Of a DNA stretch of 64,000 nucleotides, positions 42,566 to 44,317 are shown piece by piece. The position numbers and the translations under genes were made by a program. Source of the stretch: Gemmatimonadota bacterium (lineage in GTDB: Bacteria > Gemmatimonadota > Gemmatimonadetes > Palauibacterales > Palauibacteraceae); assembly GCA_965116475.1 (NCBI GenBank), contig OZ220691.1, forward strand, positions 2,592,001 to 2,656,000. Direction: 5' to 3'. The stretch's first letter is position 1; the number at the start of each line of letters is the position of its first letter. The notes beneath the pieces were generated by a model. The model was not told the origin of the DNA. It did not search any database and saw only the letters and a list, made by a program, of their open reading frames with translations.

Positions 42566-42593
42566 GGCCCCGCCGGAGAGTGTCGTCGGCGCG

Positions 42594-42609
42594 CGTTCCC
42601 GCGGGAACG
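42594..42609. repeat. Palindrome CGTTCCCGCGGGAACG, copy downstream of the HNH gene
   Basis: Exact 16-bp palindrome read directly from the sequence. Confidence 0.95.
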
Positions 42610-42621
42610 TGAGCGGCGGGC

Positions 42622-44106
42622 TCAGGCGGCCCGGGGCGCTTCGCCCGGAGTGCGCGGCGCCCGGGAGTCGCCGTACTGGCCCCACAGGACCCAGAGCGCC
42701 CAGTCCATGTCGAGCCGATCCCCCTGCCACTTGCCAGCCCCGGTCCAGGGGTCGATCCCTTTCTGTCTGTGCCAGCCGGCGAGCCCCGCATCGGGCGTCC
42801 TCGGCGCTTCCACATCCTCGCGCAACGGTGCAACCGCCGGTATCACGGTCCCGTCTGGATCCCTGAACCGCGCCGCCCCCGCCGCGCCGGCCTCCCCCGC
42901 CTGCATCTCCACGCGCCACCCGCCCTCATGCACCATCCGGTGATGGAAACGGCAGAGGAGGATGAGATTCTTCAGCACGGTTTCTCCGCCCTCGGCCCAG
43001 GGGATTGCGTGGTGAGCCTGCGTGTAGCGCGACCCGCAGCCCGGGAATCGGCAGCCCCCGTCGCGAACCTCGAGCGCCTTCCGCAGGCGCCAGTTCACCG
43101 TCCGACGCCGCCGGCCGACATCGAGCACCGAGCCGTCCAGCCCGCGGGTAACCCGCACCGCCTCGGCATCGCAGGAGAGGCGCCGCGACGTTCCCGCGGG
43201 AACGTGTGAACACTCCTCGGTGCTCAACACGTCGGGGGCTCCGGCCACCGTATGGACGACGAGTTGGACGTTCGCTTGCGTCCTGTCCTCGAGCCAGGCC
43301 TGAAGCGCATCGTGGTGCCGCTGCCCGGGCGTGCGCGGCAGTCTCAGCGGTTTCGGCTCCCACGGCGCGCTCGGCTGGTCCTCGCTTCCCTCGGCCCCCG
43401 CCTCCGCCCCTCCGGGGGTCTCGATCGCCGGTTCGGGAGCGGGCTCGGCGGCCTGTTCCGCTGCGCGCTCGGCCGCCCGTTCCGCGCGGTACAATTCGTC
43501 ACCCGCCGTCTCCAACGCCTGCAGGAGGAGGGCACCCACCTCCGGCGTCAGCAAGCCCCGCACGCGGTACATCCCATCTTCTGCCGCATGCACGTTCAGA
43601 TGGCGGCGCGTCGCGACTTCCGAATGGTCGTCCCACGCCTCCGCCGCCGCCTCGGCCGAGCGCCACGCCCGAACGAAGCGTTCGACCTGGCTCGCCGTGT
43701 GGTGCAGGGCGAACTCGACCAGCCGCTCCTCGTTTTCTTCCGTGGCGATCCGAGTCAGCGCCCGGACCTTGGACCACGAGAGACGCCCCCTCTCCATTTC
43801 CTCGGAGGTGAGCGGGAGGCAGGCGAGACGCCGGGCGACCCGCACCCGTTCGCGCGCCGTGCCGGTCGTCATGCCGGTGCGCCAGGACAGCCAGTGGGCG
43901 CACGAGATCCACCCGCTCCAGCCTTCCGCCGCGTCGAAGTGCTGGAGCAGGGTGAGAAGTCGGTACTGGCCGGCGTCGAGGTGAGCGCACAGGTGGGCGA
44001 TCTCATCGCCGAGGGGGCCAACGGGCGGAGGGGCACCCAGTCGAGTCGAGTGGCTGCGCCCCTCGCCGCTCGGGTTGCTGCCGCCGTGAGGCGTGTCGTG
44101 AAACAT
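42622..44106 (-). CDS. DUF222-domain protein with C-terminal HNH endonuclease
   Basis: SCAHWLSWRTG...ARERVRVAR and LSWSKVRALTR N-domain, RRLSCDA...LDVGR, then RDGGCRFPGC...AHH..PWAEGGET..NLILLC.FHH..VHEG. Confidence 0.9.
   Translation of the reverse strand: MFHDTPHGGSNPSGEGRSHSTRLGAPPPVGPLGDEIAHLCAHLDAGQYRLLTLLQHFDAAEGWSGWISCAHWLSWRTGMTTGTARERVRVARRLACLPLTSEEMERGRLSWSKVRALTRIATEENEERLVEFALHHTASQVERFVRAWRSAEAAAEAWDDHSEVATRRHLNVHAAEDGMYRVRGLLTPEVGALLLQALETAGDELYRAERAAERAAEQAAEPAPEPAIETPGGAEAGAEGSEDQPSAPWEPKPLRLPRTPGQRHHDALQAWLEDRTQANVQLVVHTVAGAPDVLSTEECSHVPAGTSRRLSCDAEAVRVTRGLDGSVLDVGRRRRTVNWRLRKALEVRDGGCRFPGCGSRYTQAHHAIPWAEGGETVLKNLILLCRFHHRMVHEGGWRVEMQAGEAGAAGAARFRDPDGTVIPAVAPLREDVEAPRTPDAGLAGWHRQKGIDPWTGAGKWQGDRLDMDWALWVLWGQYGDSRAPRTPGEAPRAA
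43188..43205. repeat. Palindrome ACGTTCCCGCGGGAACGT, copy inside the HNH gene (encodes VPAGT)
   Basis: Exact 18-bp palindrome read directly from the sequence. Confidence 0.95.
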
Positions 44107-44256
44107 GGCGTGTCTCCGAAGTCGAGGGTGATCGTGCGCGACCGTGACGGCGCGCACCGGCGCGGAGCGGGTGACGTCGCGCCAACTCCGCTCTCCGCTC
44201 GCTCTTCGGTCAGTATTCGGTGAGATCTCAACGGAGTATCATCGGAGACCTCGCCA

Positions 44257-44278
44257 CGGCGTTCCCGCGGGAACGCCG
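44257..44278. repeat. Palindrome CGGCGTTCCCGCGGGAACGCCG, copy upstream of the HNH gene
   Basis: Exact 22-bp palindrome read directly from the sequence. Confidence 0.95.
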
Positions 44279-44317
44279 GTCGTCCCGGTTGCGGGTCAGC
44301 CGGCGCGCGGCCGGCGG

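Follow-up and report, generated by a model that had tools for sequence, protein, structure and literature searches.

In a 64,000-nucleotide (nt) stretch of a Gemmatimonadota bacterium (assembly GCA_965116475.1, contig OZ220691.1, positions 2,592,001 to 2,656,000; the whole stretch is called the window below), we analyzed a gene encoding a DUF222 domain followed by an HNH nuclease domain (DUF222-HNH), together with a 16-bp palindrome, CGTTCCCGCGGGAACG, that lies inside it and on both of its sides. The best-supported view of this palindrome is that it is a DNA-level cis element of the DUF222-HNH family itself. It occurs in frame across the family, and its two arms have changed in a compensatory manner. 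Furthermore, the DUF222 half of the protein resembles the DNA-binding domains of ParB and Noc and is predicted to dimerize, and LexA-like boxes precede the genes of relatives. A more specific explanation, in which the protein is an SOS-induced dimeric nuclease that recognizes palindromes within its gene and close by and stimulates recombination at them, is put forward tentatively; we regard it as quite possible, if still short of probable. The following features of the window carry the analysis.

42622-44106, minus strand: DUF222-HNH gene, 494 amino acids, ATG at 44106
43666-43938, minus strand: ParB/Noc-like helix-turn-helix region of the DUF222 half, residues 57-147, suggested by a sub-threshold Pfam match and by the fold
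42928-43053, minus strand: HNH nuclease core, residues 352-393, from Pfam
43189-43204, no strand assigned: internal palindrome, encoding V302-P-A-G-T306 immediately ahead of SRRLSCDA
44260-44275, no strand assigned: upstream palindrome, 154 nt ahead of the ATG of the DUF222-HNH gene and 43 nt beyond the stop codon of the neighboring namZ
42594-42609, no strand assigned: downstream palindrome, 12 nt beyond the stop codon of the DUF222-HNH gene and 28 nt beyond that of the neighboring kinase gene
28379-28394, no strand assigned: fourth exact copy, inside thiS (28347-28547, plus strand), encoding D-V-P-A-G-T-S

The ATG at 44106 is backed by homologues beginning MFHD, and both halves of the protein score above the Pfam cut-offs (DUF222, PF02720: 72.9 bits versus 24.4, E 3.6e-20; HNH, PF01844: 30.1 bits versus 21.4, E 5.5e-07). 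In an alignment of 120 homologues, C357, H365 and H366 of the HNH core are invariant and N380, C385, H388, H389 and H393 are nearly so. The fold of this part matches the HNH domains of McrA, IscB and Cap5. Similarly, a sequence-profile search of the PDB with the protein returned matches to HNH cores only, PADLOC gave only a weak HNH-core match (REase_II, E 6.5e-4) and NCBIfam only a far sub-threshold match to the IscB HNH. The AlphaFold2 model of the 494-residue protein has a mean predicted local distance difference test score (pLDDT) of 80.8, and V302-T306 is structured in it, forming the end of a strand and the start of helix 304-312. The closest named relatives belong to Candidatus Palauibacter, a genus of Gemmatimonadota, and the gene comes in several copies per genome: a second member (P0027) is attributed to the same genome, and three members lie on another Palauibacter contig.

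A word search of the 64 kb found CGTTCCCGCGGGAACG four times without mismatch, three times in and around the DUF222-HNH gene and once in thiS. An earlier reading of this DNA, made from the sequence only, had described the first three as lying just past the stop codon, within a VPAGT-coding segment and about 150 bp upstream of the start, and all of this was confirmed; the copy in thiS had been missed. Perfect palindromy extends beyond the 16 bp at three of the four sites, reaching 18 bp at 43188-43205 and 22 bp at both 44257-44278 and 28376-28397. With up to two mismatches allowed, the window holds six matches (the additional two, at 10854-10869 and 34601-34616, are variants with 2 mismatches each) versus 0.19 expected, and none of 100 shuffles reached six. 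Half-sites alone were not enriched (16 seen, 16.0 expected under a Markov model). Only two VPAGT peptides, those of thiS and of the DUF222-HNH gene, occur among the approximately 15,500 codons counted in the window, and both are encoded by the exact 16-mer, an outcome with a probability of 2.6e-4 each under the codon usage of the window. The codons used include rare ones, GTT making up 4.5% of the Val codons and GGA 11.6% of the Gly codons.

The sequence-only reading had also pointed to TCTCC following each of the three copies and had taken the flanking sites for copies of the internal coding segment. The TCTCC is indeed there. The second part did not hold up: in 24 between-site comparisons of 40-nt flanks, none went beyond what 25 or fewer of 500 shuffles reach, and since these alignments are no better than chance, it is not established that the flanking sites were copied from the coding segment. 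As single-stranded DNA, the 22-bp copies give stable hairpins; the upstream copy folds with a 9-bp stem at -11.5 kcal/mol, and 0 of 200 shuffles fold as well. RNA folds were unremarkable (z-scores of -1.8 to +0.1), and an Rfam search of 42000-44800 gave no match at an E value of 1 or below. A scan for promoters and intrinsic terminators called neither at any of the three copies around and in the DUF222-HNH gene; their hairpins are not followed by a T-run. No canonical parS was present in the window within 3 mismatches. As to the two variants, the one at 10854-10869 can be read as M-A-D-V-P-A-E-T, in a frame different from that of a long holA-like open reading frame (ORF), and the one at 34601-34616 lies in a frame reading R-F-R-G-N, in a segment that looks POTRA-type by eye.

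We then turned to other genomes. An exact scan for the 16-mer in a genome collection of 596 billion bases returned at least 130 stretches; absences from it count as weak evidence, and all locus counts given here hold among the matches listed. A DUF222-HNH gene was present in 21 of the 130 loci, from groups that include Actinomycetota, Proteobacteria, Acidobacteriota, Methylomirabilota and Binatia. In the 20 of these loci that could be resolved, 24 of 28 palindromes are in frame and read x-VPAGT, while the remaining four comprise an RSRGN reading (L099), two of uncertain frame (L120) and one past the stop codon (L012). The in-gene copies are found in the linker before the conserved RADAL helix, in a second linker, at a conserved site before RRLxCD and in the C-terminal tail, and some genes carry two or three of them. 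Additionally, a homologue found by protein similarity alone (L135; a contig of 73% G+C from a phage collection) encodes its linker VPAGT by the exact 16-mer. Across phyla, then, the palindrome goes with DUF222-HNH genes, for the most part as internal copies in frame, and the association anticipated by the sequence-only reading holds.

The accompanying idea, that the bracketing palindromes define an element, fared less well. Copies outside the ORF, with up to 3 mismatches allowed, were found at 0 of the 9 other complete DUF222-HNH loci, and bracketing is therefore no family trait. A homologue on a Rhodococcus plasmid (L131) is without the internal motif and has a palindrome upstream only, the perfect variant CGTCCCCGCGGGGACG, located 94 nt ahead of its start and just past the stop codon of the upstream gene. 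This homologue comes from a sample of plasmid and phage DNA in which 4 plasmid and 2 phage records matched (2 plasmid records with a second query); in two Arthrobacter stretches (L133, L134), the reading frame was not resolved.

Since an in-frame palindrome could be kept either as DNA or as peptide, we examined the coding copies at both levels. In a diverse set of 150 representatives, no two of them more than 50% identical, V[SP]A[GE]T is the sole conserved pentapeptide that recurs within proteins. VSAET was found 85 times in 64 proteins, VPAGT 14 times in 10, VPAET 13 times in 11 and VSAGT 8 times in 7; 83 of the 150 proteins have at least one copy, 55 copies being at the conserved site and 65 elsewhere. 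VSAET can be encoded by GTT TCC GCG GAA ACG, which is the same palindrome with T·A for C·G at positions 5 and 12, and all five arm pairs that are set by amino acids are complementary. Within the linkers, which are unstructured, the choice between S and P is coupled to that between E and G (44 VSAET, 10 VPAGT, 4 VPAET and 7 VSAGT; odds ratio 15.7, p 6.6e-5). The same coupling was seen in a replication set of 119 relatives of a Solirubrobacteraceae-type member, 86 of which have 1 to 6 copies for a total of 204 distinct occurrences (133 VPAGT, 39 VSAET, 18 VPAET and 14 VSAGT; odds ratio 20.6, p 1.2e-16). On the tree of this set, the palindrome type changes at least six times, and when seven VSAET groups were compared with their nearest VPAGT partners, the E/G column differed in 6 of the 7 pairs and the S/P column in 4 of them. 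The coupling thus evolved more than once, and homologues preserve palindromy through coupled changes.

The residue preceding the motif is restricted as well. K, E, Q, M and W, whose codons never end in C, are avoided at this position, as base 1 of the 16-mer would demand: they precede 2 of 82 motifs versus a background of 18% (p 1.2e-5) and, in the replication set, 1 of 204 versus 16% (p 4e-14). At conserved sites that the scan had not selected, the VSAET of L104 is a perfect palindrome, CGTCTCCGCGGAGACG, with matched synonymous third bases, while one pair is asymmetric in L075 and two are in L031. Where a protein has several copies, these tend to be of one type (136 concordant versus 47 discordant pairs; shuffles gave 83 +/- 6 concordant pairs and 0 of 2000 reached 136), and their modal spacing is 12 codons. 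Extending the peptide-level constraint to 18 or 20 bp gave nothing significant, as 2592 and 560 of 5000 permutations, respectively, reached the observed value. Based on these coding patterns, we conclude that a DNA (or RNA) palindrome has long been kept in the DUF222-HNH family and that the peptide for the most part merely reflects it. Some peptide-level constraint may exist too: that nearly all in-gene copies share one frame and that the conserved-site motif is structured both speak for it.

Two observations concern the linkers themselves. In some members they contain tandem units that each hold one palindrome (P0152, P0257, P0196), such as the repeated 22-residue unit of P0152, whose VPAGT occurs four times; units of 14 residues occur also. 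Moreover, the related genes of L121 on the one hand and of L073 and L135 on the other differ by inserts bounded by two palindrome copies.

We next asked what might read such a site. The model of the N-terminal domain (N-domain; residues 25-225) has a pLDDT of 93.9, and in a Foldseek search against the PDB its top ten matches were all DNA-binding domains of ParB, Noc or Spo0J, with probabilities of 0.97-1.00 and, in 8 of the 10, a root mean square deviation (rmsd) of 2.3-2.5 A over approximately 80-100 columns. Compared with the site-bound DNA-binding domain of Noc (6y93_B), the template modeling (TM) score was 0.56 by target length, with an rmsd of 2.3 A over 82 columns. In good agreement with this, the Pfam family HTH_ParB matched the N-domain over profile positions 5-99 of 102 (E 0.027, 15.1 bits versus a cut-off of 22.6). 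It matched 16 of 102 diverse homologues at an E value of 1 or below (best 4e-4) and was the only recurring family besides DUF222 and HNH; likewise, at E values up to 10 the whole protein matched DUF222, HNH families and HTH_ParB only. The ParB-like binding mode that the sequence-only reading had raised as an alternative thereby gained support from fold and profile comparison. The ParB/Srx CTP (cytidine triphosphate)-binding domain gave no Pfam match in the protein at E values up to 10. As this domain is absent and there is no ParA, the DUF222-HNH protein is not a ParB; judging by its modeled fold, it is likely a user of the ParB DNA-binding module.

A homodimer was predicted with a score of 0.70, versus 0.00 for the best of 3 controls. 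This mark is reached by 20 of 30 proteins solved as one-chain pairs and by 1 of 23 solved as single chains, counts that hold only roughly since an alignment of our own was used. Between runs, at least 65% of the contacts are the same, with a partner pLDDT of at least 59, and the predicted interface is symmetric and lies in the N-domain (helix 29-62, hairpin 167-188 and helices up to 275). The prediction supports a symmetric dimer of the DUF222-HNH protein. The consensus sites of ParB and Noc are likewise 16-bp palindromes, TGTTTCAC-GTGAAACA and TATTTCCC-GGGAAATA (PMC7383237).

Just ahead of homologues in three phyla, we found LexA-box-like palindromes, recognized by the consensus forms of each phylum: in a gammaproteobacterium (L055, approximately 2213-2240), in a member of the Solirubrobacteraceae (L018, approximately 2412-2425) and on the Rhodococcus plasmid (L131, 1368-1383), the first two in gene-strand numbering and L055 as the reverse complement. 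In M. tuberculosis, where DUF222-HNH genes are known as 13E12 repeats, published studies describe six LexA-binding peaks at 13E12 genes (PMC3381160), list REP13E12 regions among the most frequent gene-conversion sites (PMC13061034) and find an overlap of 13E12 genes with inversion breakpoints (odds ratio 405; PMC13157036). Judged by their sequence, the LexA-type boxes would extend the mycobacterial damage control to the wider DUF222-HNH family. For the window itself, no LexA box was assigned, and inspection by eye revealed no motif common to the upstream regions of the DUF222-HNH gene and uvrA.

Taken together, these data can be accommodated as follows. DNA damage would switch on the DUF222-HNH gene through LexA, in line with the boxes of relatives; helix-turn-helix domains of ParB type, paired in a dimer, would bind the palindromes inside and beside its own gene, plus other copies in the genome; the HNH domain would then nick or cut at the bound palindromes; and repair of the breaks would drive local recombination. 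Such a chain of events would account for the palindrome-bounded tandem duplications in linkers, for the palindrome-gene-palindrome layout of the window, for the scattered intergenic copies reminiscent of repetitive extragenic palindromic (REP) sequences and for the recombination hot spots at 13E12 loci. Reading of the palindrome by this protein, cleavage at the site and the ensuing recombination are inferences. A bolder reading would place the family in a new element class of its own, in which a ParB-type dimer directs an SOS-induced nuclease to a parS-like palindrome carried in frame within the nuclease gene, thereby programming gene conversion, inversions and linker duplications and seeding REP-like palindromes; it is more doubtful, and we lean against it.

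A number of observations weigh against an SOS-induced nuclease reading the palindrome. The Foldseek E values of the top ten N-domain matches are weak (0.07-0.25), and the HTH_ParB match stays under the Pfam cut-off. When the helix-turn-helix columns were compared with the palindrome type, only clade markers were seen across phyla and no consistent switch in the seven independent pairs of a single clade; with no column switching along with the type, there is no sign of the protein reading base pair 5/12. The strict coupling of the arms is predicted at least as well by an intrastrand hairpin or by arm-to-arm template switching, and a duplex-bound dimer does not need it. Nearly all in-gene copies are in one frame, unlike what random insertion at the DNA level would give. 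Any V[SP]A[GE]T is lacking in 67 of the 150 diverse representatives, and both peptide and palindrome are missing from a homologue on a Mycobacterium plasmid (L132), over the 4.5 kb retrieved. On the Palauibacter contigs of L063, L074 and L077, whose ThiS or HNH proteins have VPAGT, the scan listed no exact-word match at those genes; provided that the scan covered these contigs in full, they have not kept the exact word. Finally, the motif is not confined to DUF222-HNH genes. In loci from Palauibacter and other Gemmatimonadota, the palindrome follows closely on the 3' ends of unrelated genes, often where two genes converge (an aldo-keto reductase beside a BNR-repeat protein, a dipeptidyl peptidase, carB next to an integrase gene, DcuC); its neighbors in actinobacterial multi-copy loci are likewise housekeeping genes; and the exact word also occurs in genomes in which no DUF222 gene was seen nearby.

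These sites outside the family were classified wherever the locus carried flanks. Of 76 non-HNH sites, 37 are intergenic, 25 are in ORFs and 14, in low-G+C loci, were left unclassified. The intergenic sites are preceded at position -1 by A in 23 cases, G in 12 and T and C in one each, and followed at position +1 by C in 18, T in 17 and G in 2, giving a purine-core-pyrimidine pattern. Flanks so far from base composition indicate that these sites are real members of one motif. The 25 ORF sites comprise 16 in the VPAGT frame, 5 reading FPRE and 4 reading RSRGN; three FPRE sites lie within 90 nt of the 5' end of the ORF and may be upstream DNA. The 15 VPAGT-frame sites away from ORF 5' ends are in genes for an ABC ATPase, sigma-70 region 4, a dehydrogenase, PASTA and SPFH proteins, where VPAGT is natural, and VPAGT-frame coding sites outside the family are regarded as being at about chance level in 596 billion bases. 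In ThiS, VPAGT is present in 34 of 94 homologues and the D-V-P-A-G-T-S peptide is kept across Palauibacter; since no match was listed at thiS in the L074 and L077 contigs, the present genome may be alone in having the exact word in this gene, on condition that the scan took in those contigs completely.

Three observations on individual loci may be added. In a metagenome-assembled genome of the Gemmatimonadetes (L024, 3001-3016), the palindrome comes right after the carB stop codon and approximately 115 nt from a convergent tyrosine-integrase gene, and it may be an attachment-site junction. At least six exact copies occur in one Sphaerochaetaceae assembly of 54-58% G+C (L004, L005, L026/L027, L044, L061), and single exact copies occur in gut Opitutales (L029, L032, L071). 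Several of the copies in these two groups are in A+T-rich stretches beside T-runs, and no DUF222 gene was seen within their flanks; they may be terminator-like repeats or sites of another factor.

Could the palindrome do without a reader altogether? It might be a self-maintaining hairpin or REP-like repeat, that is, structure-forming DNA (or RNA) at gene ends that is merely tolerated in a permissive frame, its arms being kept matched by intrastrand template switching or mismatch correction while the HNH protein reads nothing. Template switching at quasi-palindromes predicts coupled arm changes, and coupled changes with few hybrids are what we observe. The 37 intergenic sites with their shared flanks, the Palauibacter copies just 3' of unrelated genes and often between convergent ones, the helix-turn-helix columns that do not co-vary with the motif type and the stable single-stranded DNA hairpins of the 22-bp copies all fit such a repeat. 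It leaves unexplained, however, why one family has the word in 21 of 130 loci, at a conserved site and in linkers and across phyla, and why its N-domain resembles a reader of 16-bp palindromes and is predicted to dimerize; moreover, the hairpins have no T-run and the RNA folds are unremarkable. Overall, we consider a reader-less repeat unlikely. We hold a similarly reserved opinion of a purely regulatory role, in which the ParB-like domain binds the palindromes of its own gene to restrain a dangerous nuclease, by autorepression or as a transcription roadblock, on top of LexA control, and the HNH domain has its targets elsewhere, such as in damaged or foreign DNA. The fold likeness and the predicted dimer are in agreement with an operator, as are the window sites upstream of, inside and downstream of the gene, the upstream site of the Rhodococcus plasmid next to its LexA-like box and the close arrays of 2 to 6 linker sites with their modal spacing of 12 codons, which resemble iterated centromere or operator arrays. 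Yet most loci have internal copies only, and an operator explains neither the thiS copy, nor the copies 3' of unrelated genes, nor the palindrome-bounded duplications.

Two further explanations appear far less probable. In one, V-S/P-A-E/G-T matters as a peptide, serving as a structural cap at the conserved site and as a short linear motif in the linkers, and the palindromy of the DNA is a by-product. The motif is structured at the conserved site, where it stands at a helix start, nearly all copies share one frame, and VPAGT is naturally common in ABC ATPases, sigma factors, dehydrogenases and ThiS. But a peptide motif does not require all five amino-acid-fixed arm pairs to be complementary, P/G and S/E to switch jointly in unstructured linkers, the preceding residue to be restricted to codons able to end in C, or rare codons to be used; furthermore, the window has exact copies in the non-coding DNA on both sides of the gene, and L131 has a variant upstream of its gene. 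We therefore give this explanation very little credence. In the other, the four exact copies within 16 kb are centromere-like or nucleoid sites of the host, bound by a Palauibacter ParB/Noc-family protein of altered specificity, with the DUF222-HNH gene as a bystander. parS sites form clusters of 16-bp palindromes, some of them within genes, and the window does hold a cluster of perfect 16-bp palindromes, some in genes with rare codons, and no canonical parS within 3 mismatches. Neither parA, parB nor origin genes were found among the window genes, though, the matches listed for other Palauibacter genomes are scattered, one or two per genome, with none syntenic with the window, and the link to DUF222-HNH genes in other phyla would go unexplained. 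Host sites of this kind are hardly to be expected here.

The surroundings of the gene were examined as well and comprise the following features.

41630-42565, plus strand: DAGK/YegS-type kinase gene, pointing toward the DUF222-HNH gene
44318-46249, minus strand: namZ, pointing toward the DUF222-HNH gene
44203-44248, no strand assigned: imperfect inverted repeat with 27-nt arms, 70% complementary, centered on GAGATCTC

The position of the gene between a lipid kinase gene and namZ is thus as first described. No scan locus among the 130 matches listed was similar in DNA to the window beyond the DUF222-HNH gene, so that this synteny was not met elsewhere, and a tblastn comparison of 32 other window ORFs with the scan loci gave only two weak matches (L077 and L072). 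The inverted repeat lies in the gap that separates the ATG from the upstream palindrome, where the G+C content ahead of the gene is lowest, and from its sequence it may be a putative promoter or operator region; the promoter scan called no sigma-70-like promoter there. At the other end of the gene (42622-42630 in the window), the protein ends in Ala-Ala in 52 of the 120 closest homologues (P0001-P0120), mostly in the Palauibacter clade and with otherwise variable tails, and in only 5 of the 150 diverse representatives; the Rhodococcus plasmid gene ends in W-A-A. Two possible readings of this ending are a 3' end conserved as DNA and a degradation tag. Elsewhere in the window, GCGATCGC, which we take to be the octamer known as the highly iterated palindrome of cyanobacteria, is contained in three short palindromes (7464-7471, 33960-33967 and 56323-56330). 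An AAA_21/AbiEii-type ATPase gene (54715-55854, minus strand) is divergent from uvrA (56036-58968, plus strand), and four CAAGC repeats were seen by eye in the spacer between them.

DUF222-HNH proteins are very common, with 26,612 cluster representatives at E values up to 0.001, 13E12 repeats included, and the 13E12 repeats are damage induced, lie at recombination and inversion hot spots and are without an assigned function. The family now gains a candidate DNA site, a candidate ParB-type reading domain and a predicted dimer, and its function can thereby be reduced to a test of binding and cutting. If true, a palindrome-targeted SOS nuclease would explain the behavior of the 13E12 repeats. Additionally, this is a rare example of a DNA palindrome shaping a conserved peptide, the arms co-varying through two codons. 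The family itself is known; what appears to be new is that it has a compensating palindrome embedded in its genes, that the fold of DUF222 resembles ParB, that a dimer is predicted and that LexA boxes precede members outside mycobacteria. In their accessible parts, the publications on 13E12 and DUF222 name no cis site or DNA-binding fold, and our literature searches found, in the texts they reached, no paper tying DUF222 to ParB or to a palindrome.

Among known systems, ParB-parS and Noc with its Noc-binding site (NBS) share with the present case a perfect 16-bp palindrome with outer GTT...AAC, a similar DNA-binding fold and a dimeric reader, which for DUF222-HNH is predicted. ParB sites can sit in coding DNA, including the reader's own gene, as in spo0J of B. 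subtilis. However, the DUF222-HNH protein has no CTP-binding domain or ParA partner and is fused to an HNH nuclease, its sites are in frame with 1 to 6 copies per gene, and their center is CGCG rather than ACGT or CCGG. Compared with the half-sites of parS and NBS given in PMC7383237, the half-site CGTTCCCG has 4 of 8 bases in common with each, and its T variant CGTTTCCG has 5 of 8.

The REP13E12 elements of M. tuberculosis too match Pfam DUF222 with HNH, are multicopy and have no defined function, and they are under LexA control (PMC3381160) and form recombination hot spots (PMC13061034, PMC13157036). As a difference, the only Mycobacterium homologue examined, the plasmid-borne L132, is without both peptide and palindrome.

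The REP sequences and their associated tyrosine transposases (RAYT, or TnpA-REP) offer another parallel, since there, as in the window, a gene is bracketed by a short palindromic repeat that is also scattered 3' of other genes, and the idea of a nuclease that keeps or spreads its own hairpin sites is the same. Unlike RAYT, the DUF222-HNH protein showed no Y1/HUH domain at Pfam E values up to 10, the enzyme being HNH plus helix-turn-helix; the repeat is a perfect palindrome of 16-22 bp with copies inside coding sequence; and bracketing was seen in the window only and in none of the 9 other complete loci. The end hairpins of IS200/IS605 insertion sequences and the attC sites of integrons are perfect or imperfect palindromes that act as folded single strands on behalf of a dedicated enzyme, and the coupled arm evolution described here fits a folded form. 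These systems use a Y1 transposase and a tyrosine recombinase, respectively, whereas Pfam analysis of the DUF222-HNH protein gave no such assignment.

Lastly, free-standing HNH homing endonuclease genes resemble our gene in that a selfish-looking HNH gene is wedged between two unrelated conserved genes and encodes a site-specific nuclease that could copy itself via break repair. Homing sites, however, are long, asymmetric and destroyed by the insertion, whereas the DUF222-HNH site is symmetric and is kept both inside and beside the gene.

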